Source: an uncultured Alphaproteobacteria bacterium
GTDB taxonomy: Bacteria; Pseudomonadota; Alphaproteobacteria; JAJFIK01
Direction: 5' to 3'
Assembly: GCA_964561475.1 (NCBI GenBank)
Contig: CAZLPU010000005.1
Span: 4,425 to 68,424, forward strand
Length of the DNA stretch: 64,000 bases
Numbering within the stretch: position 1 is the stretch's first letter; each line of letters starts with the position of its first letter. The notes under the pieces are model-generated. The model was not told where the DNA came from, did no database searches, and worked only from the letters and a program-made list of their open reading frames with translations. Both the position numbers and the translations under genes were made by a program. Below are positions 898 to 48,959 of this stretch, in pieces.

Positions 898-2202
898 TTA
901 TGTCTGATCACCTTTGTGCACTCTGCCGAAACGGGTGGGGATTGCGTGGGTGTCGCGCATTTCCTCCAAGGCGTGGGAGTCGTGTCGGGCGGCGGTGCTG
1001 CGGCCATACCAGTTGGCGAAGGGCGCGGCCGTCACCCCATGGGCGATAATGCTCAACGCCACGGTGAGGATGGTCAGCATGATGATCTGCTCGGCCACGG
1101 CATTGCCCATGGTCTCCTCGACCACAAGAAGCGCGAACAGGATCGAGGCCAGCCCGCGGGGACCGAACCAGCCCAGAAACAACACGGTGCCCGGCAGAAG
1201 TTTCGCGCCGATCATACTGATGGCCACAGGCACCATGCGCATGACCGTGAGGGCCAGCACCGCATAGGCCACCATCTGCCAGGTCAGGTGGGCGAAAAGA
1301 TCCGGCACCAACACTGCGCCAAAGACCATGAACACGAACAAGGTCAGCAACTGTCCCTCCGCCTCGGCAAAGTCCAGGACGAACCGGTTGCAGTGATGGG
1401 TGGTGTTGCCCATGGTCAGACCCGCCACGAAAGCCGCAATGAACCCGTTCCCGCCGATGGCTTCCGCGCCCGCAAAGGCGAGCAGGGCCAAAGCCAGGGC
1501 ACTGACGCCCTGGAAAGACTCGCTCATCCAGTCGGCAAGGCTTGAGCGCTCGATTGCCTGGCCCCCCAGATAACCGATGACCGCCCCGGCCAGGGGACCA
1601 AGAGTCACCTGAAGGATCCCGAACAACAGGAAGTTGGTGCCGTCATCCATCTGGTGTTCCGGATTGGCGAAACACAGAAACAGCACGATGACCGGCAGGG
1701 CGATCCCGTCATTCAGGCCGCTTTCCACATTCAAGGCCTGCCGGATCCGGGTGGGCACCCGGGGGCTCGTGACCACGGACTGACCCAGGGCAGCATCGGT
1801 GGGTGTCAGGATGGCCGCCAGGAGGGCTGCTTCCCAGACGGAGAACTCGGGGAACAGGGGCACCGCCAACAGGGTCCCCATGATGATGGTCAGAGGCATT
1901 CCGTATGCAAGCATCCGGATCGGGAGATCGTGATCTGCGGACAGTCTGCGGAAATCGATTCGCGCCGCATCCGTGAAGAGCACGAGGACGAGGGTCAGCT
2001 CCGCCAGGAGGTGGATGGTCCCCTCTTCCACGTTGAGGTTCACAAGCCCAAGCCCGCCAGCACCGACCAGAAGCCCGAACCCGGCAAACACCATGGGCGG
2101 CGTGATGATCAGCCGGTCCGACCGGCCGGAAATCAAGGCAAAGCCCAGAATCACCAATGCGATGAGAACGAAACCGAATGTTTCCACAACCCACTCCCCC
2201 AA
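898..2202 (-). CDS. Na+/H+ antiporter, CPA1 (NhaP-type) family
   Basis: 434-aa polytopic membrane protein with cation:proton antiporter signatures (LTPTDAALG, SGLNDGIALPVIV...). Recognised from sequence. Confidence 0.8.
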   Translation of the reverse strand: MGEWVVETFGFVLIALVILGFALISGRSDRLIITPPMVFAGFGLLVGAGGLGLVNLNVEEGTIHLLAELTLVLVLFTDAARIDFRRLSADHDLPIRMLAYGMPLTIIMGTLLAVPLFPEFSVWEAALLAAILTPTDAALGQSVVTSPRVPTRIRQALNVESGLNDGIALPVIVLFLCFANPEHQMDDGTNFLLFGILQVTLGPLAGAVIGYLGGQAIERSSLADWMSESFQGVSALALALLAFAGAEAIGGNGFIAAFVAGLTMGNTTHHCNRFVLDFAEAEGQLLTLFVFMVFGAVLVPDLFAHLTWQMVAYAVLALTVMRMVPVAISMIGAKLLPGTVLFLGWFGPRGLASILFALLVVEETMGNAVAEQIIMLTILTVALSIIAHGVTAAPFANWYGRSTAARHDSHALEEMRDTHAIPTRFGRVHKGDQT

Positions 2203-3246
2203 CCGGTTTGATTATTGGCCCATTTCATTTTGGCCCAGTCGATTCTGGCCGACGGCCAGCCGATTCTGGACAACGAAATCTGATCCGCCCGGCCCTGGCC
2301 CGCGTAAAAGCCACGCATGAGAAAAAATTCTATGTCAGGCGATCGAAATCAACGCCTTGCGCATACCCTGCGGGTGAATAAAACCCCAAGCAAATACGCG
2401 TGATCGGCATCCCAAGGCCCTCCGGAGTTAAGGGCCGGCGCCAAGGAGCCAACCGGGGTGGCGGGTTCCTGCGCCAGATCCCGAAAAACGTTCACGGATC
2501 GTTGTTCAGCGGATTGTCCGTATGCTGGTGCGATAGAGGGGCCTCCGGTTGCCAGGCGATCGCGTTATCGCAATTGATCCGCATTCTCCCTATGGTCGGC
2601 GTTGGGACTGTGGACCGCCTGACATGTCCGTAAAAGACAACGATTTCAGTCTGATGCAGGCACCCTTGCCTGGAGTTATTTATGCAAAATCAAAATATCG
2701 TCACTGAATTTCTTTCCTGGCTATAAGATCTAGGCGGCAATCCGGCGTTGAGTATTTGGTGTAACGGCAACGAAAAAAGCCGCTTCGGTATTTGGACTTT
2801 ACCCCTATACAATTGATCGAGATCAATCAGTCATCCGCCGATGGGTCTATGGTCCACGGCAGACTGTCATGTCCGGATGCGGTCGGGCCTGCATCGTGCC
2901 CGGCTGCCATCCCGCCCGGCGTTCGTTCCGCCCGGCCCTCGCCCCAATGGGCGCATGTGACCCTGTTGCTCTGTGTATCCAGGTTCCCTGTGTATCCAGG
3001 GTGACCGCGTATCCAGGACACTGCGCTTCGCGATGGCTGATGGAAGAAAGTCAGGGTGCCGGACTTTCCGGGACCAGACCGGCCCCAGACCTGATCAGGG
3101 GCGGTGATCGTGTCCCGACCATGCATTAGTCGGTCTGCAGCGGGCTTGGCGCTGGACTGCCGGTTTCCTGTCCCTGTCAGCCAACGGATAAATGTATCCA
3201 TGGCTCTCGGGGGCAATCGCCGCATAGCCCCAGGGATACCGCAACC

Positions 3247-4053
3247 ATGCGCACACTCATTGTCGACAATCAGCCCTTGTTCGCTCAGGCCCTGAGCCGG
3301 CTCGTGACCGAAACGCGGGTTGGCCACAACAGTCCGGGCCAAAGTGGTTCGGGCCAAAGTGGGTCGGGCCAAAGTGGGTCGGGCCAGAGTGGGTCGGGAG
3401 AGGCCGTGATTGCGGGCAGCATCGACGAAGCCCTGGCCATCCCCCAAAGCGCCAATGACCTTGCCTTTCTCAATGTGGAACGGCCCGTGTCGAATACACC
3501 GAAAGCAGTCGGGGAAGTGATCGCCCGGCATCCGGGCATTCGGGTCATCGCGCTGATGACCGAACTGGATATCCGGCTCCTGCGGGAAGCCATGCGGGCC
3601 GGAGCCCACGGCGCAATCACCCGCACCAGCGATCCGGCAACCTTCCGAATCGCCATCGACAAAGTCATGGCCGGGGGACGGTATGTGCCCGACGACCTGC
3701 CGGACGGTCCGGTTTCCGGGTTCCAGGACATGGATGGCGCCGCGGACAGCGAAAAAGGACGCACCCTGCTGTCAGAGAGCGGATTTTCCAATCTCACCCC
3801 CCGTCAGCAGGAAGTGCTCAAGCTTCTGGCACTGGGTCAGGCAAACCAGGAAATCGCCGCCCAGCTCGGCATCGCCCTGGCTACCGTGAAATTGCATGTG
3901 AACGCCATTCTGCGGGCCCTTAATGTGCGCAACCGCACGGAGGCTGCGGCCATGGCGATTGTCGGCGGCCTGACGGAGCAGGCGTCCACCAGGCGCCCGG
4001 CGCCCCATAGCCTGACTTTCACCACCCAGATGACCACGCCCGCCGTGGACTGA
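3247..4053 (+). CDS. LuxR/NarL-family response regulator with atypical (likely non-phosphorylatable) receiver domain
   Basis: N-terminal REC-like fold (MRTLIVDNQPLF...) plus C-terminal LuxR HTH (LTPRQQEVLKLLALGQANQEIAAQLGIALATVKLHV). The canonical phospho-acceptor Asp is Asn (DLAFLNVERP) and the conserved Lys is Arg. A (GQSGS)4 insertion sits in the receiver. Confidence 0.8.
   Translation: MRTLIVDNQPLFAQALSRLVTETRVGHNSPGQSGSGQSGSGQSGSGQSGSGEAVIAGSIDEALAIPQSANDLAFLNVERPVSNTPKAVGEVIARHPGIRVIALMTELDIRLLREAMRAGAHGAITRTSDPATFRIAIDKVMAGGRYVPDDLPDGPVSGFQDMDGAADSEKGRTLLSESGFSNLTPRQQEVLKLLALGQANQEIAAQLGIALATVKLHVNAILRALNVRNRTEAAAMAIVGGLTEQASTRRPAPHSLTFTTQMTTPAVD
3336..3397 (+). repeat. 15-bp in-frame tandem repeat x4 (gggccaaagtgggtc) encoding (GQSGS)n inside the response regulator gene
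   Basis: Four direct tandem copies, read from the sequence, with only one or two substitutions. Confidence 0.85.
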
Positions 4054-4192
4054 GTGGCTTGGGGGGCGGAGGGCGCTGACGGAACGCAATCCCGCACTTG
4101 TTCAGCCCGTTTTTCCTTTTGGACGGTGAAAAAATAGGCCGCGCCCCGGGGGCACGGCCTTTTTCTGTGTGCTTATCCGTAATGGGCTGCGA

Positions 4193-5584
4193 TCAGCCCG
4201 GAAGGATCCAGCTCAGGTTCGAAGCAATGAGCACCACGATGATCGCGACCGGGATCACGTAACGGGTCAGAACCTGCCAGATCTGGAAGAACAGCGGCGA
4301 AAGGCCGATTTCCTCGCGCATGATCGATTCCGACACGGCCCAGCCCGCAAACAGGGACACCGCGAGACCGCTCAAAGGCAGCATGATGTTGCCGGTCAGC
4401 ACATCGAGGACGCCGAAGAAGGTCTGGCCCGCGAAGGGTCCGAAATCCAGGGGATAGAAGCCCGACCAGACCCCGAAGGACAGCAACGAGCCGATCCCGA
4501 TGAACCAGGCAATCAGACCCCAACGCAGGGCCGCCTGACCCCGCTGCCAACCGAGTTGATCCTCGGACCAGGCAATGATCACCTCGAACAGGGAGATGGA
4601 CGAGGTCAGGGCCGCAAAGAAGGCCAGGGTGAAGAACACCCCGCCCACAAGGGACCCATAGGGCAATTCACCGATCGCCGCCGGCAAGGTGGCGAACAGC
4701 AGGCCAGGACCCGCATTGGGCTCCAGCCCCTGAACCACGAACACCATGGGGAAAATGGCAAAGCCCGCCAGAATGGCGATGAACGTGTCCGACAGGGCCA
4801 CGGTGCGCGCTGAGCCTGCAATGGGCTCGTCCCGGGTCATATAGGCCCCATAGGTGATCATGATTGCCGAGCCCACACCCACGGAGAAGAACGCCTGACC
4901 GATCGCTGAGACCACGACGTCGAAGGAGATCTTGGAGAAATCCGGCGAGAACAGGAAAGTCGCGGCGGCGGCCACGTCGCCCACATAGGCGCCGTAGATC
5001 ACCATCGCGACCACCATGACGAAGAACATGGGCATGAGGATATTGGCCGCGACCTCGATGCCGCCCTTCAGACCCCTGGCCACGATAAAGGCGGTAAGCC
5101 CCATGAAGGCCGTATGCCAGCCCAGGGCCCAGGAGGTGTTGGTGTTCAAATCGGAAAAAAGCACCTGGGCGCCTTCGAAACCGACATTGGTCAGTTCACC
5201 GGATAGGAAAATGGGCACATAGGCCATCACCCAGCCTGCGATCACGCTGTAATAGGTGAGGATGAGGAACCCGGCGATCATGCCGATCCAGCCCACTGCC
5301 CCCCATAGCGGCGACCTGTTGCTGTCCTTGGCCAGGGCCACGGTCGCGCCCACCGCCGAAAGCCCTGTGCGCCGGCCAATGGCGTATTCGGCGATCAGCA
5401 CCGGAAAAGCGATGGCCAGGACCGCGACGAGATACACAACCACGAAAACCGCGCCGCCGTTCTGACCCGCCTCATAGGGAAAGCGCCAGAAATTGCCCAG
5501 ACCCACAGCCGATCCCACGGCCGCCATGACGAAAGTGAACTGAGATGACCAAGTCTCATGCACGGTCGATTTCTGGCTGGCCAC
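4193..5584 (-). CDS. Sodium-dependent transporter, neurotransmitter:sodium symporter (NSS/SNF) family
   Basis: 463 aa. The N-terminal motif WSSQFTFVMAAVGSAVGLGNFWRFPY is diagnostic of NSS transporters, and the protein has 11-12 predicted TM helices. Confidence 0.85.
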   Translation of the reverse strand: MASQKSTVHETWSSQFTFVMAAVGSAVGLGNFWRFPYEAGQNGGAVFVVVYLVAVLAIAFPVLIAEYAIGRRTGLSAVGATVALAKDSNRSPLWGAVGWIGMIAGFLILTYYSVIAGWVMAYVPIFLSGELTNVGFEGAQVLFSDLNTNTSWALGWHTAFMGLTAFIVARGLKGGIEVAANILMPMFFVMVVAMVIYGAYVGDVAAAATFLFSPDFSKISFDVVVSAIGQAFFSVGVGSAIMITYGAYMTRDEPIAGSARTVALSDTFIAILAGFAIFPMVFVVQGLEPNAGPGLLFATLPAAIGELPYGSLVGGVFFTLAFFAALTSSISLFEVIIAWSEDQLGWQRGQAALRWGLIAWFIGIGSLLSFGVWSGFYPLDFGPFAGQTFFGVLDVLTGNIMLPLSGLAVSLFAGWAVSESIMREEIGLSPLFFQIWQVLTRYVIPVAIIVVLIASNLSWILPG

Positions 5585-6104
5585 GGGCTACCCCCTCAAT
5601 CGGCGACAGACAATTTTAGATGAACTGTGGCCCAAATTAGTCTGATGCTTCGTTGACGGCAACCTTGCCCCAACCCGGGCCATTGCGGGCAGAGAGGCAC
5701 GACCACTCGTGGTCCCGGCCCAAAAGGCGCTCCGTCCAGATGCGTCATGGACACCCCCATCCGCAAGAAAAGCACTGCCGGGTTGCATCCTGTCCGGTCA
5801 TCACGGCCCTTTGACGGGGGGGCTGGAACATGGGACCTTCACCAAACGGACAGGAACGGGCTGAATAGTGAGGGCGGTCGCGTGACTTGGCTCCGTGGTC
5901 CGGCCCTGTGGCCCGGCTCTGTGGGGGGGGCGTGCCGGGGACCGGCTGGAAACGCGGTTGAACGCGCTTTCAGGGAATACGCTTTCAGGGCAGGTCCTGG
6001 TGTGTTTGCCCTTCGTTTCGCAGCCCGTCTCATTGACTGTACCGGGCGGTTCAGGTGAACCGTCCAATTCGTGTTTCAGCCGTTTGGGGGATCAGCACCC
6101 GGCC

Positions 6105-7028
6105 ATGCTCGCTTTCGGTATCAGACGGATCATTTTCGCCATCCCGACGCTTTTCATCGTTGTGGCCGTTGCGTTTTTCATGATGCGGCTCGCCCCCGGC
6201 GGTCCCTTCGACAAGGAACGGGCGGTGCCGCCGGAAATCGAGCGCAACCTGCTGGCTGCCTATGATCTGGACAAGCCGATCCACGAACAGTTCTTCATCT
6301 ATCTCAGCAAGGCCGTGCGGGGTGATCTGGGTCCCTCGTTCACCTACAAGGACTTTTCGGTCAGCGAACTGATCGCCCAGGGCGCTCCGGTGAGCATCCG
6401 GCTCGGCCTGACCGCCCTGACCCTCGCCCTGGTTATCGGTCTGCTGCTGGGCACCCTGGCGGCGCTCAACCAGAATTCCCCCCTCGACTACATGGTCATG
6501 GGCACCGCGATGATTGGGATCACCATCCCGAACTACGTCATCGGGCCGGTTCTGACCCTGATTTTCGGGGTGTGGTTCAGCCTGCTGCCCACGGCCGGTT
6601 GGGGCGGCGGCGCGCTCGCGAACATGATCCTGCCGGTCACCGCCCTTGCCCTGCCCCAGATCGCCATCGTGTCCAGGCTGACCCGGGGCGGCATGATCGA
6701 GGTGCTGCGCTCTAACTTTGTGCGCACGGCCCGGGCGAAAGGCCTGCCGGAGCGCCAGGTGATCTTCCGCCACGCCCTTCAGGCAGGCGTTCTGCCGCTT
6801 GTGGCCTATCTCGGACCGGCGGCGGCGGCCCTGGTCACCGGTTCCCTGGTGATCGAGCAGATCTTTCAGCTTCCCGGAATCGGACGGTTCTTCGTGGTCG
6901 GGGCCATTCAGCGGGACTACACCCTGGTGATGGGTGTCGTGATCCTGTTTGCCAGCCTGATCATTATTCTCAACATGGTCGCGGATCTGATTGTCGCCTG
7001 GCTCGATCCGCGGGTGCGTCTGAAATGA
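6105..7028 (+). CDS. oppB: Oligopeptide/dipeptide ABC transporter permease (OppB/DppB-like)
   Basis: Begins MLAFGIRRIIFAIPTLFIVVAVAFFMMRLAPGGPF, the canonical OppB N-terminus, with an EAA-like region downstream. The track ORF starts at 5895 but the family start is the internal ATG at 6105. Confidence 0.8.
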   Translation: MLAFGIRRIIFAIPTLFIVVAVAFFMMRLAPGGPFDKERAVPPEIERNLLAAYDLDKPIHEQFFIYLSKAVRGDLGPSFTYKDFSVSELIAQGAPVSIRLGLTALTLALVIGLLLGTLAALNQNSPLDYMVMGTAMIGITIPNYVIGPVLTLIFGVWFSLLPTAGWGGGALANMILPVTALALPQIAIVSRLTRGGMIEVLRSNFVRTARAKGLPERQVIFRHALQAGVLPLVAYLGPAAAALVTGSLVIEQIFQLPGIGRFFVVGAIQRDYTLVMGVVILFASLIIILNMVADLIVAWLDPRVRLK

Positions 7029-7086
7029 TTGGAGCACTGGGGCCACAGCCCGCCCCGCGTTCCCGACCGAGTGCCGCGACAAGAGG

Positions 7087-8040
7087 ATGCCCGAAATGGC
7101 GACAGCTCAGATGAGCCCCCCCTCCAATCCCTCCCGGCCCGGCCAGACCCCGGGCCGCAACGAGGACATTCTGACCCTTGCCGCCGAGGTCAAAGGACGC
7201 AGCCTGTGGGACGACGCCCGGGCCCGCCTGCTGCGCAACCGCGCCGCCGTGGGCAGCATGATCGTGCTGGGCATCATCACCTTCCTGGCCCTGTTCGGTC
7301 CCTATCTCAGCCCCTACACCCTTGAGGGGCAGAACTTCAACTACATCCAGCAGGGCCCCAACCTGGCCAACGGCCATATCTTCGGCACCGACGGGAACGG
7401 GCGGGATATTTTCGTGCGCACCATGTGGGGTGCCCGGATCTCCCTGCTGATCGGCGTGGTGGCCACGGGGGTCAGCCTGCTCATCGGCGTGCTTTACGGG
7501 GCCACCGCGGGCTTCGTGGGCGGGCGCGTGGATGAGTTGATGATGCGCTTTGTGGACATCCTCTATTCCCTGCCTTTCGTTTTTTTCGTGATCATCCTCA
7601 TCACCGTGTTCGGCCGGAACTTCATTCTGATTTTCGTCGCGATCGGCGCGGTGGAATGGCTGACCATGGCCAGGATCGTCCGCAGCCAGACCCTTTCCAT
7701 CCGTCAGAAGGAATTCATCGAGGCGGCCAGGGCCACGGGCGTGGACACCTTCACCACGGTGCGCCGCCATATCATTCCCAATGTGGTGGGTGTCGTGGTG
7801 ATCTATGCCACCCTGACCATTCCCACGGTGATCCTGCTGGAAAGCTTCCTCAGCTTCCTGGGTCTTGGGGTTCAGGAACCCCTCACCTCCTGGGGGCGGT
7901 TGATCTCCGAGGGCGCCCAGGGCATGGAATTCGCCTGGTGGACGCTGATCTTCCCCGCCGCCTTTATGGCCGTGACCCTGTTCTGCTTCAACTTTATCGG
8001 GGATGGTCTGCGCGACGCCCTCGACCCGAAAGACCGCTGA
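7087..8040 (+). CDS. oppC: Oligopeptide/dipeptide ABC transporter permease (OppC/DppC-like)
   Basis: 317 aa with the OppC-type N-terminal region (SLWDDARARLLRNRAAVGSMIVLGII) and a BPD_transp_1 core. Lies immediately downstream of oppB. Confidence 0.8.
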   Translation: MPEMATAQMSPPSNPSRPGQTPGRNEDILTLAAEVKGRSLWDDARARLLRNRAAVGSMIVLGIITFLALFGPYLSPYTLEGQNFNYIQQGPNLANGHIFGTDGNGRDIFVRTMWGARISLLIGVVATGVSLLIGVLYGATAGFVGGRVDELMMRFVDILYSLPFVFFVIILITVFGRNFILIFVAIGAVEWLTMARIVRSQTLSIRQKEFIEAARATGVDTFTTVRRHIIPNVVGVVVIYATLTIPTVILLESFLSFLGLGVQEPLTSWGRLISEGAQGMEFAWWTLIFPAAFMAVTLFCFNFIGDGLRDALDPKDR

Positions 8041-10602: not shown

Positions 10603-11340
10603 TCAGCGCAGACGCTCAACCTTGATCGCCTTGCCCCGCCCTTCCAGGCGCAGCCGGTATCCGCCCACCAGACCGCGCTTGATCTCGACGCTGGACAGGC
10701 TGTCGCCGGGCACGTTCACCCGACCGGACCCAAGCTGGCGCCAGAGCTGGCCGTTCTCCAGCACCACATAGAACTTGCCGAAATTATTGTAGCCGTAGCG
10801 ATCCACACCCACGGTGACCTTGCGCAGACGCTCCTGCTTGGCGGGCTCCACGGGCTTGGAGGTCAGATCATCCTGGGACACGGTGGCGTCGCCAAAGGTC
10901 TCGGCGGATGTGTCCGGAGCGGCGGGCTGGGCGGGAGCGGCAGGTTGCGCGGGAGCAGCCGGTTTGGCCGGAGTTTCAGGCGCTGCGGCAGGTGTTACGG
11001 GTGCGGGCATGGCTTCCCGGCGCGCAATCTCGGCTTCCCGGCGGGCGATTTCTGCTTCCCGGCGCGCGATCTCCGCCTCCCGGAGGCGGATTTCCTCGGC
11101 GGCCTGAGCGTCCAGGACTTCGTCCGCCCGGGGCGGGACTTCGGCGGGATTTGCCGGCACCGGCTTGCCGGCCGCGCGCAGGGCCATGGTCACGGCGTCG
11201 AAACAGGTGAGCCGGGCGCTGTCGTCCTTGATCTCGGCACACCGGGCCAGAGGATCCTTTGCGGTCTTGTCGTCCGCGCTCGCTGGCGCTCCCATCACGG
11301 ACATGCTGCCAATGACCGCAGTCAGTACAGCCGCACGCAT
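10603..11340 (-). CDS. Secreted hypothetical protein with (REAEIAR)3 heptad repeat and Pro/Ala-rich linker
   Basis: Signal peptide MRAAVLTAVIGSMSVMGAPASA. Three perfect 21-bp repeats encode REAEIAR, followed by a PAxPAAPAQ low-complexity linker and a C-terminal globular region with no recognised family. Confidence 0.55.
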   Translation of the reverse strand: MRAAVLTAVIGSMSVMGAPASADDKTAKDPLARCAEIKDDSARLTCFDAVTMALRAAGKPVPANPAEVPPRADEVLDAQAAEEIRLREAEIARREAEIARREAEIARREAMPAPVTPAAAPETPAKPAAPAQPAAPAQPAAPDTSAETFGDATVSQDDLTSKPVEPAKQERLRKVTVGVDRYGYNNFGKFYVVLENGQLWRQLGSGRVNVPGDSLSSVEIKRGLVGGYRLRLEGRGKAIKVERLR

Positions 11341-25325: not shown

Positions 25326-26156
25326 GTGGACACCACACAGCACCAGTCAGCGGGTTCCGGCGCTGATGACTCCGGCACTGGAGAAACCGGCACCGAGAAA
25401 ACTGGCACTGGGGAAACTGGCGCTGGGGAAACTGGCACTGGAAAAACTGGCGCCGGGGACAAGACACCGCTCGTGGCGATGGCGGGGATCGGCAAGGCCT
25501 TCGGCCGGGGCGCCGGAGCCGCCATTGCCCTTGATGGTATCGACCTGGAGCTTGATTGCGGGGAATTCGTTGCCGTGATGGGTCCCTCAGGCTGTGGGAA
25601 ATCCACCCTTTTAAGCCTGATCGGCCTGCTCGATGCCCCCACCAGCGGCATGTACCGGTTTGCGGGCAAAGACATCACCGGCCTGGGCGAGAACGGCCGG
25701 GCCCACCTGCGCCGGGGCCGGATCGGCTTTGTCTTCCAGAGCTTCAACCTGATCAGCGACCTCACGGTGGCTGAAAATGTCGGTGTCGCCGTGCGTTATC
25801 TGGGCCTGGGTCCGACCCGGCGCCAATCGCTGGTCGATGACGCCCTGGAACGCCTGGGCCTGACCCATCGCCGCAATGACCGTCCCCATCAACTCTCCGG
25901 CGGCCAGCAGCAACGGGTGGCCATCGCCCGCGCCATCGCCGCCAAGCCTGACCTGATCCTGGCGGACGAACCCACAGGCAATCTGGACAGCCGCAATGGC
26001 GACGCCGTGATGGAAATGCTGCTCGATCTCCACGGCGAGGGCACGACGGTGGTCATGGCAACCCATAACGAAGCCCACGCCGAGGCGGCCTCAAGGGTGG
26101 TGCACCTGTCGGACGGCAAAGTGGCCAGCCAGACCGTGCACCGGCAAGCCTCGTAA
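25326..26156 (+). CDS. ABC transporter ATP-binding protein (MacB/LolD-type) with N-terminal (TGETGx)5 repeat extension
   Basis: Walker A GPSGCGKST, signature LSGGQQQRVAIARA, Walker B LILADEPTGNLD. A ~55-aa low-complexity N-terminal extension is encoded by 18-bp tandem repeats. GTG start as in the ORF track. Confidence 0.75.
   Translation: MDTTQHQSAGSGADDSGTGETGTEKTGTGETGAGETGTGKTGAGDKTPLVAMAGIGKAFGRGAGAAIALDGIDLELDCGEFVAVMGPSGCGKSTLLSLIGLLDAPTSGMYRFAGKDITGLGENGRAHLRRGRIGFVFQSFNLISDLTVAENVGVAVRYLGLGPTRRQSLVDDALERLGLTHRRNDRPHQLSGGQQQRVAIARAIAAKPDLILADEPTGNLDSRNGDAVMEMLLDLHGEGTTVVMATHNEAHAEAASRVVHLSDGKVASQTVHRQAS
25372..25458 (+). repeat. 18-bp in-frame tandem repeat (actggcactggggaaact-like) x~5 encoding TG(E/K)TG(T/A)
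   Basis: Read directly from the sequence; periodic 18-bp units with few substitutions. Confidence 0.8.
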
Positions 26157-47860: not shown

Positions 47861-48754
47861 TCAATCCGCCGGTTGAAAGACAATGATGATATCCGACTGG
47901 GCCATCAGCTTGTGCCGTTCGACGGCGGTTTCCTGGGTTTCCCCGTCCTTGTCCCGGTATTTGAGTTGGATGGTCTGTTCCACCGGCTCCCTGGTCTCGC
48001 CATGCTCCGAAGTCTGCTTTTTCACTTTCGGATCCAGATAGAGAATGACGCCCCCTTGATGGCGGGGAAAGGAGCGGACCGTTGCCCCGTCCACCAGAAC
48101 ATGGGCCCAATCGTCACTGGAATGGAGGGGCGGAAACTTGGACGGGGGCATCTCGATGCGCACTTTGGCCATGGTGCGCTGCTGCTGTTTGACGAAAGCG
48201 CGGCCTTCGGACGGTTTGCGCAGATTCACTGCACTGAAAATCCGGTAGACCGCATCATTGCCTCCGGCCAGCACCAGCCCTGTCAGCAGGAAGCCCAGGC
48301 CGGTCGGGAAGGTGCCATCGGGGAAGGGTTCCCCGAAGCCTTCCATCACACTGGCCAGAATGTTGATCTCGACCACATTGGTCACCACAAGGGCCGAGAT
48401 GATGATGAAGGGGGTCTTGAAGGCCTGTCCTTCCAGGAAGGCGGCAAAACGGCGGGAATTGAACAGGGTGGTGTAGGCCTGCTCCAGGATCAGGGTGATC
48501 AGGGCAAGCATCAAAAGATCGTCGATCAGTTGCTCATATTTGCCGTGATGATCCTCATCGCCGGGATTTTTAGTGCGCTGATCACCGGCCGCATCCGTCG
48601 CCTGCCCTGTTTCAGCAGAGGACGGAGCACCGCCGTTATCGCCTGGCTGAGCGCTCTGCCCACCGTCACCCTGGGCAAAAGCATCGACACTTTCGCCGGT
48701 CACCCCTGCCAGGAGCAGAACCAGCAGAAAGAAAACACGCGTCAGTCCAACCAT
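47861..48754 (-). CDS. Hypothetical membrane protein (signal peptide, Gly/Asp-rich segment, 3-4 TM helices, soluble C-terminal domain)
   Basis: Chosen over the overlapping + strand ORF (47873-48787) because it has a signal peptide and coherent hydrophobic helices. No recognised family. Confidence 0.5.
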   Translation of the reverse strand: MVGLTRVFFLLVLLLAGVTGESVDAFAQGDGGQSAQPGDNGGAPSSAETGQATDAAGDQRTKNPGDEDHHGKYEQLIDDLLMLALITLILEQAYTTLFNSRRFAAFLEGQAFKTPFIIISALVVTNVVEINILASVMEGFGEPFPDGTFPTGLGFLLTGLVLAGGNDAVYRIFSAVNLRKPSEGRAFVKQQQRTMAKVRIEMPPSKFPPLHSSDDWAHVLVDGATVRSFPRHQGGVILYLDPKVKKQTSEHGETREPVEQTIQLKYRDKDGETQETAVERHKLMAQSDIIIVFQPAD

Positions 48755-48959
48755 GACCACCTCCGCCGGTTTCAATGCCTGACTTGATGAACATCAAGCT
48801 ATAGGCCCGGCACGGAAGTCTGCCAAGACGGCGGCCCCGGCGCATAAGAGGTTGGTCTTATTGAGTACTGATCCGCGTCCCTGCCCTCTTTGCGGCGGGA
48901 ACGCGGACACTTCCGGGAGGAGGCCGGGCCAATCGATGAGGCCCGGCCGCAGGCTGGTT

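Follow-up and report, generated by a model that had tools for sequence, protein, structure and literature searches.

An orphan, aspartate-less NarL/LuxR-type regulator gene behind a conserved FNR/FixK-type box in an uncultured alphaproteobacterium

The 64-kb stretch of DNA analysed here (contig CAZLPU010000005.1, positions 4,425 to 68,424, from an uncultured alphaproteobacterium; hereafter the window, in whose own coordinates all positions are given) carries at 3247-4053 on the plus strand a gene whose product, as judged from its sequence, is an orphan NarL/LuxR-family transcription factor that has kept the receiver fold but in which phosphorylation of an acceptor aspartate is predicted to be impossible. 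A palindrome upstream of the gene, which an earlier note on this DNA had offered as a site to be bound by the regulator itself, is an exact match to the anaerobox of FNR/FixK-type activators and recurs in front of the orthologous genes. Taken as a whole, we consider it probable that this is a phosphorylation-independent orphan factor whose amount is set by a low-oxygen-responsive Crp/Fnr-type promoter and whose receiver domain tolerates an inserted repeat.

The open reading frame (ORF) is intact and encodes 268 aa; the ORF listing, Pfam, Foldseek and synteny all contribute to its annotation as an orphan aspartate-less NarL/LuxR-type factor. Its start codon at 3247, the first one past the upstream stop, is taken as right because the N-terminus MRTLIVDNQPLF lines up with the MRALIVD[NH]QPLF of the closest orthologues. 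A GerE/LuxR-type helix-turn-helix DNA-binding domain occupies residues 182-237 (3790-3957, plus strand; Pfam PF00196, E = 4e-18, 65.2 bits against a cut-off of 23.5) and forms four helices at 185-195, 200-207, 211-225 and 230-239 in an AlphaFold model built from an input alignment of 63 sequences (mean predicted local distance difference test score, pLDDT, 82). The same model gives residues 1-141 (3247-3669, plus strand) a regular (beta-alpha)5 receiver fold, with beta3 at 72-76, beta4 at 99-104 and beta5 at 122-125, and leaves the inter-domain linker at 157-174 disordered. Response_reg (PF00072) scores 19.4 bits in the native protein against a gathering cut-off of 30.2, the match being broken by a tandem repeat; once the repeat (residues 31-50) is removed the profile aligns end to end (positions 2-110), yet reaches just 22.5 bits. 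Full-length NarL-family regulators (LiaR, VraR, spr1814, ChrA, NarL and RcsB) are the top Foldseek matches in the PDB. None of the NCBIfam equivalogs reaches its cut-off, the best being MadR (67 bits, cut-off 300) and ErdR (64 bits, cut-off 390), and the protein therefore falls outside every named family. The description of the gene in the earlier note, as a LuxR-family regulator with a pseudo-receiver, is thus borne out by a strong GerE match, a sub-threshold receiver match and substituted key residues.

These substitutions were located by four pairwise alignments and an alignment of 218 relatives, which agree that Asn76 (codon 3472-3474) stands at the position of the phospho-acceptor Asp and Arg126 (3622-3624) at that of the conserved Lys. 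In the phmmer alignment with DevR (3c3w), DLAFLNVERP lies opposite DVAVLDVRLP and GAITR opposite GYVVK, so that Asn76 corresponds to DevR Asp54 and Arg126 to DevR Lys104; alignments of the repeat-free receiver with 3cz5, 2qsj and a designed receiver return identical correspondences and set Asp7-Asn8 (3265-3267 and 3268-3270) opposite the DD pair. Within the MAFFT alignment the Asn76 column holds D in 184/218 sequences and the Arg126 column K in 181/218, and in the model Asn76 is the last residue of beta3. The second acidic residue of the DD pair after beta1 is lost as well: of the relatives, 148 have D and 28 have E in the Asn8 column (176 acidic in all), and the syntenic clade has N or H there. 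Thr105 (3559-3561) is present according to the pairwise alignments and the model, in a column that is poorly aligned in the 218-sequence set and holds S or G in the orthologues. Three of the five catalytic positions (DD-D-T-K) thus fail in this protein. Both replacements named in the earlier note, Asn for the acceptor Asp and Arg for the Lys, were confirmed in this way, and none of these alignments placed a genuine Asp at the acceptor position.

Receiver folds without the acceptor Asp have been termed aspartate-less receivers (ALRs), and those lacking any of the five catalytic residues pseudo-receivers (PMC12632262, PMC4395418); by these definitions the domain is an aspartate-less pseudo-receiver. 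Among aspartate-less receivers Asn ranks second in frequency as the acceptor replacement (16%; PMC4395418). No histidine kinase adjoins the regulator gene in the window or in any of the seven syntenic loci described below. Because the acceptor Asp, the Lys and one acidic residue are lost and no kinase is adjacent, regulation independent of Asp phosphorylation, which the earlier note had thought probable, can soundly be inferred and is supported here.

Seven syntenic loci, six of them distinct, were found in metagenome-assembled genomes of uncultured alphaproteobacteria (L001, L007, L008, L009, L010, L011 and L029). They share with the window a common slot in which MarC and a cation/proton antiporter on the minus strand are followed by the regulator and then by a convergent SNF transporter and Opp permeases; L011 and L029 lack the antiporter and keep the remaining gene order. 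The residue at the acceptor position is Cys in P0002 (from L001/L009), P0004 (L008) and P0005 (L010), Ser in P0003, Thr in P0006, Phe in P0007 and Ala in P0027, so that loss of the acceptor Asp is clade-wide; Arg replaces the Lys in all of these orthologues but P0006. We also observed that five of them, P0002-P0006, carry a Cys six residues past the acceptor position (CVERPVC, SVERPVC, TVDRPVC).

The nearest relatives of the window protein are 45-49% identical to it, and the protein is a singleton among 5.8 billion clustered proteins, the sole member of its own cluster, with no record of the exact sequence in the contig index. When the receiver half was searched against 1.84 billion representatives, only P0004 and P0006 were returned, besides the query, at about E 1e-10 or better, and for this reason we regard the pseudo-receiver as highly diverged and its clade as small. 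Between the window (898-8040) and the syntenic loci the flanking genes are 62-83% identical, versus 37-49% for the regulator, and the divergence is uneven within the latter: the helix-turn-helix is 74-81% identical to the orthologues and the pseudo-receiver 26-45%. The contrast fits a conserved DNA-binding function joined to a domain that would have been freed from catalytic constraint. On these comparisons the regulators constitute a small, fast-evolving clade in a fixed genomic slot of uncultured alphaproteobacteria.

Upstream of the gene, TTGATCGAGATCAA at 2813-2826 had been described as a palindrome. It does contain the inverted repeat TTGATC/GATCAA, but the centre, GA, is non-symmetric and the 14-mer is not a perfect palindrome. 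What it matches exactly is the FNR/FixK anaerobox consensus TTGAT-N4-ATCAA (PMC7888657, PMC2908626), 434 bp 5' of the ATG, and it also fits the alphaproteobacterial FnrN/FixK consensus TTGANCNNGATCAANG (PMC4999443) save for the last base, including the C at position 6. The window holds two perfect TTGAT-N4-ATCAA sites, where 0.08 would be expected. Each of the seven syntenic orthologues is likewise preceded by a box, at -119 to -249 from the start codon: the match is perfect in L001 and L009 (TTGATCCATATCAA), L007 (TTGATCCAGATCAA) and L008 (TTGATCCACATCAA), has one mismatch in L010 (TTGATCCATGTCAA) and L029 (TTGATCTACGTCAA) and two in L011 (TTGATCCAGGTCAC). In 867 kb of fetched loci, boxes with up to one mismatch have a background density of 0.031 per kb. 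Across the orthologues only the 5-N4-5 core TTGAT/ATCAA and the C at position 6 are conserved. Since L011 and L029 keep the box although they lack the divergent antiporter gene, it is tied to the regulator gene (possibly to MarC) and not to the antiporter.

The second perfect box of the window, TTGATGAACATCAA at 48784-48797, lies about 30 nt upstream of the ATG at 48754 of a minus-strand ORF (47861-48754, 297 aa) whose product begins with what resembles a signal peptide and has no match in Pfam or NCBIfam; the centre of the box is about 36 nt from that ATG, a poor fit to a simple class II promoter.

The promoter regions were compared in an ungapped register counted from the box; MAFFT of these regions misaligned the boxes. 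In this register TAGnnT stands exactly 22 nt past the box in five orthologous loci and TATGGT follows after 21 nt in the window, and the looser TAnnnT is found 21-22 nt past the box in the window and in five of the six distinct orthologous loci. The window hexamer (2848-2853, plus strand) is a putative -10 element, with a predicted transcription start near 2860. The box centre would then lie about 41 bp upstream of the start, which is the class II geometry of Crp/Fnr-family activators, and the anaerobox position reported for activated promoters of Rhizobium leguminosarum, -32 to -34 from the transcription start (PMC7888657), agrees with the spacing seen here. Between 2150 and 4300 no sigma-70 consensus promoter was found, as would be expected if transcription depends on an activator. 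What this analysis newly contributes is that the palindrome is reassigned to a conserved promoter element of the FNR/FixK type.

We propose that control acts mainly on the amount of the protein, through transcription from a class II promoter that would need an activator of the Crp/Fnr family. The regulator would be made at low oxygen and would bind DNA through its conserved GerE helix-turn-helix with no input from a kinase, probably as a dimer by analogy with other NarL-family proteins. Constitutively active pseudo-receivers under indirect regulation are one of the scenarios set out in PMC12632262, and the mechanism proposed here, by analogy, matches it, as it matches the behaviour of other orphan atypical regulators of the NarL type such as BldM/WhiI (PMC4125116) and SecR (PMC13199381). 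Pseudo-receiver regulators are common, yet PMC12632262 treats the question of how they are turned on and off as open; for one small clade, this locus suggests an answer that is simple and can be tested, namely control of synthesis via a conserved FNR/FixK-type promoter instead of control of the protein.

Several points weigh against this proposal. A tblastn search of the 64-kb window and the fetched loci with an E. coli FNR query found no Crp/Fnr-family gene, and the activator is therefore assumed to be encoded elsewhere in the genome, just as the protein is assumed, by analogy, to be constitutively active. The box is symmetric and lies in a divergent region, and could serve the MarC and antiporter genes instead of the regulator or as well as it. 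Its distance from the ATG implies a leader of about 385 nt, without convincing structure or Rfam hit, versus about 70-200 nt predicted in the orthologous loci, and a second promoter nearer the regulator gene is possible. In L029 no clear -10-like hexamer is seen at the expected distance. Finally, the units of the repeat described below differ by synonymous changes only, a weak hint of selection on the peptide that they encode.

An alternative that we hold to be unlikely, while giving it some weight, is that the pseudo-receiver does the sensing: a small ligand, a partner protein or a change in redox state would switch the activity of the regulator, so that abundance would not act alone. A domain with an intact fold has after all been retained in eight genomes, and the Cys residues of the orthologues, three at the acceptor position and five at +6, recall the Cys-ALRs, which have been proposed as redox sensors (PMC4395418); that the switching of pseudo-receivers is called an open question (PMC12632262) also leaves room for such a role. 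The window protein, however, has neither Cys, but Asn76 and Ser82 in the places where several orthologues have them, and the identity of 26-45% in the pseudo-receiver, set beside 62-83% in the neighbouring genes, argues against a conserved ligand pocket. For the ligand cyclic di-GMP (c-di-GMP), VpsT-type regulators use the binding motif W[F/L/M][T/S]R. Such a motif is absent here because the protein contains no Trp.

Autoregulation, with a GerE dimer seated on the inverted repeat as its own operator, was implied by the upstream palindrome in the earlier note and strikes us as distinctly unlikely. NarL-family proteins do bind inverted repeats, and the site can be read in the 7-2-7 form ATTGATC-GA-GATCAAT. 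LuxR-type activators are able to act from about -42, and autoregulation would likewise predict conservation of the site upstream of every orthologue. There is also precedent among atypical regulators, as SecR1 and SecR2 bind their own promoters (PMC13199381). What the orthologues keep, however, is not a 7-2-7 site but only the 5-N4-5 core with the C at position 6, that is, the pattern of TTGANCNNGATCAANG (PMC4999443); the second perfect box in the window stands at an unrelated gene; and, as a weaker argument, more distant relatives in the Parvibaculaceae, whose recognition region (LGIALATVKLHVNAIL) is almost the same, lack such a box in front of their genes. As an exact anaerobox kept with class II spacing across the orthologues, the palindrome is more likely the site of another regulator, of the FNR/FixK type, and self-binding would be the less economical explanation.

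The tandem repeat, to which the earlier note had drawn attention, encodes (GQSGS)4 at residues 31-50 (3337-3396, plus strand, in frame). Tandem Repeats Finder (TRF) reports a 15-bp unit x4.3 at 3335-3398 with a score of 114, and scores never exceeded 63 in 20 composition-preserving block-shuffles of the window. All four units translate to GQSGS, which makes the peptide repeat perfect, and the array is real and well beyond what chance would give; the DNA repeat, which had been called perfect, carries two synonymous mismatches (GGT for GGG in unit 1, CAG for CAA in unit 4), while units 2 and 3 are identical across 30 bp. A weakly similar unit, GGCCACAACAGTCCG (GHNSP), lies just 5' of the array at 3322-3336 and matches at 10/15 nt. 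As had been supposed, the linker is inserted into the receiver fold: in the AlphaFold model residues 26-52 form an unstructured loop (pLDDT 52-58) between alpha1 (10-25) and beta2 (53-56). Among the 218 relatives the insert is unique to the window protein, with 27 residues here versus a typical 4, and no GQSGS repeat occurs in P0002-P0007 or P0027. When metagenomes were scanned with the 20-mer that immediately precedes the repeat, three contigs with unrelated flanks came back, that is, chance matches.

The repeat is most likely a lineage-specific insertion that would have been generated by replication slippage, and in the model it probably forms a flexible loop on the surface, at the other end of the domain from the former active site, that is tolerated and not functional. 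Short tandem repeats abound in the window (32 TRF rows versus 0-6 in the shuffles). Other in-frame examples within ORFs lie at 25374-25459 and 10914-11094, one of these two regions holding a 15-bp unit x5 and the other a minus-strand REAEIAR x3 followed by PAAPAQ repeats.

The earlier note had seen in the array a possible site of slipped-strand expansion and contraction, which is plausible, but we give little credence to the stronger view that (GQSGS)4 is a functional, length-variable, contingency-type module tuning the activity of the regulator between cells or strains. Apart from the reality of the array and the 30 bp of identity between units 2 and 3, it could draw on the fact that both unit differences are synonymous, for which our own estimate of the chance probability is about 6% (11/45 single-base unit changes are synonymous). 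Since the unit is 15 bp, however, slippage alters the length and never the reading frame, and the repeat cannot be an on/off switch. The loop is distant from the former active site, alpha4-beta5-alpha5 being separate and well-modelled segments; the array is already interrupted by the two mismatches; the insert is found in no relative; and the many other coding and non-coding short tandem repeats favour a general mutational tendency. On the view that the loop is tolerated, the protein would be a natural example of a 20-residue flexible insert accommodated in the alpha1-beta2 loop of a receiver fold.

A combination of these ideas seems to us very improbable: a two-tier control by oxygen and redox state, in which an FNR/FixK factor would switch on the orphan NarL-type regulator, a Cys-bearing pseudo-receiver would sense redox changes and the GQSGS loop would tune the output. 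If true, it would be previously unrecognised, with the conserved neighbouring ion and solute transporters as targets, and redox sensing would have been lost in the window genome (Asn76, Ser82) while a length-variable loop was gained. That the protein is a normal phosphorylated response regulator, through a shifted alignment or through deamidation of Asn76 to Asp followed by phosphorylation, is improbable in the extreme: in a receiver domain an Asn at the acceptor position can be converted back to Asp chemically (PMC4395418), and Asp71 and Glu78 are close to Asn76, but in all alignments and in the structural model it is Asn76 that closes beta3, the Lys is lost too, as is one of the metal-binding acidic residues, none of the C/S/T/F/A residues of the orthologues is able to deamidate to Asp, and the neighbourhood has no partner kinase.

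The non-coding intergenic region in which the box lies (2203-3246) is expanded, as composition and the orthologue gene maps indicate, to 1044 bp, versus about 360-420 bp in the orthologues. The earlier note had stressed an unusually AT-rich tract of about 600 bp here; AT-richness exists but is modest and was overstated, the GC content being 57% over the whole region, 53% over 2203-2850 and 45% solely over 2600-2830, against 62.6% for the window. That the extra 650 bp or so might hide a small gene or a mobile element was considered and rejected, with no GC signal at third codon positions in any frame and no repeat of the sequence elsewhere in the window; neither the remainder of the window nor the fetched loci show similarity to 2203-3246. 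An RNA element in the leader was rejected as well, as the predicted 387-nt leader folds just slightly better than its shuffles (z = -1.83). Rfam gave no match in the intergenic region, and its single hit, Thr_leader (20.7 bits, E 0.73), is downstream at 4128-4269 and far sub-threshold.

Within the predicted leader there is a degenerate 17-bp tandem array (2962-3017) with GTATCCAGG x3 at 2975, 2992 and 3009, and a related element, GTATCCATGG, at 3194-3203, 45 bp before the ATG; neither occurs in any orthologous upstream region, and the array is specific to the window genome. Tandem duplications (15-bp x2 and 21-bp x2) adjoin the start codon of the antiporter at 2215-2275 and may have contributed to the growth of the region to 1044 bp. 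Directly upstream of the box in L001, L007, L008 and L010 there is a block, CTGCG[GA]C[AG]T(3-5 nt)TG[CT]C, which is conserved among these four but absent from the window; it could represent an additional operator or belong to the divergent promoter. Between box and ATG the orthologues have a single k-mer in common, the ribosome-binding GAAAGGA. No k-mer of 8 or more recurs among the SNF-Opp intergenic regions, and no common motif in the neighbouring promoters points to the regulator's own sites.

Two further features flank or end the coding region. Downstream, between the regulator and the convergent SNF transporter genes, a terminator scan identified at 4136-4162 a GC-rich hairpin with T-runs on both strands that looks like a bidirectional intrinsic terminator. 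At the very C-terminus the orthologue alignment (columns 301-325) reveals TPAVD at residues 264-268 (4036-4050, plus strand), the window version of a TP[AS][VL]D ending common to this protein and P0002-P0005 and preceded by a variable 25-residue tail; it could be a recognition or degradation tag.

Neither an orphan Asp-less NarL-type regulator nor an anaerobox-driven regulator gene would surprise a specialist, and current understanding is left unchanged; the value of the locus lies mainly in its annotation and in a lead for regulon work in uncultured alphaproteobacteria. In comparison with known FNR/FnrN/FixK class II promoters (PMC7888657, PMC2908626, PMC4999443), it has the same exact box, the C at position 6 and a -10-like hexamer about 22 nt later, and differs by the unusually long predicted leader of about 385 nt. 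The canonical NarL, DevR/DosR, LiaR, VraR and RcsB share the two-domain architecture and the fold of the window protein and provide its best structural and sequence matches; they keep DD-D-T-K and pair with kinases, whereas the window protein fails at three of five positions and scores below the Pfam threshold. Among the c-di-GMP regulators of the VpsT/CsgD type, VpsT is a mid-ranking Foldseek match, from which the window protein differs in having no Trp at all.

BldM and WhiI of Streptomyces development (PMC4125116) are likewise orphan NarL/LuxR-type proteins that act without conventional phosphorylation, their activity being governed largely by the timing of their synthesis and by their partner (PMC4125116). 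They are actinobacterial developmental regulators to which no specific sequence relationship was found, whereas the window gene stands behind an FNR/FixK-type box.

Closer in lineage are the SecR proteins, orphan atypical NarL-family regulators of the serine cycle in alphaproteobacteria (PMC13199381), which combine a receiver with a LuxR-type helix-turn-helix, have lost the acceptor Asp (replaced by G/A/S/E/N among the homologues; PMC13199381) and have no cognate kinase. SecR1 even carries an extra disordered segment of about 20 residues, as the window protein carries a 20-residue repeat. Yet SecR genes adjoin serine-cycle genes (sga/glyA) or methylamine genes, whereas the neighbours of the window regulator are transporters in all seven loci, and SecR acts via CCYACCCG, a motif absent from 2203-3246 and unenriched in the window (8 versus 9.3 expected). 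By gene context and by motif, the window regulator is not a SecR.

RitR has the same Asn at the acceptor position, with an OmpR-type output where the window protein has a GerE/LuxR-type one. More broadly, orphan aspartate-less (pseudo-receiver) regulators are already known as a class, and the window protein belongs there: as in the atypical regulators described before (PMC4395418, PMC12632262), the fold is kept, the acceptor Asp is replaced and other catalytic residues are lost, and it shares orphan status with nearly all characterised members (PMC12632262). Within the ALR class it is distinguished by its very divergent pseudo-receiver and by the unique repeat insert between alpha1 and beta2.

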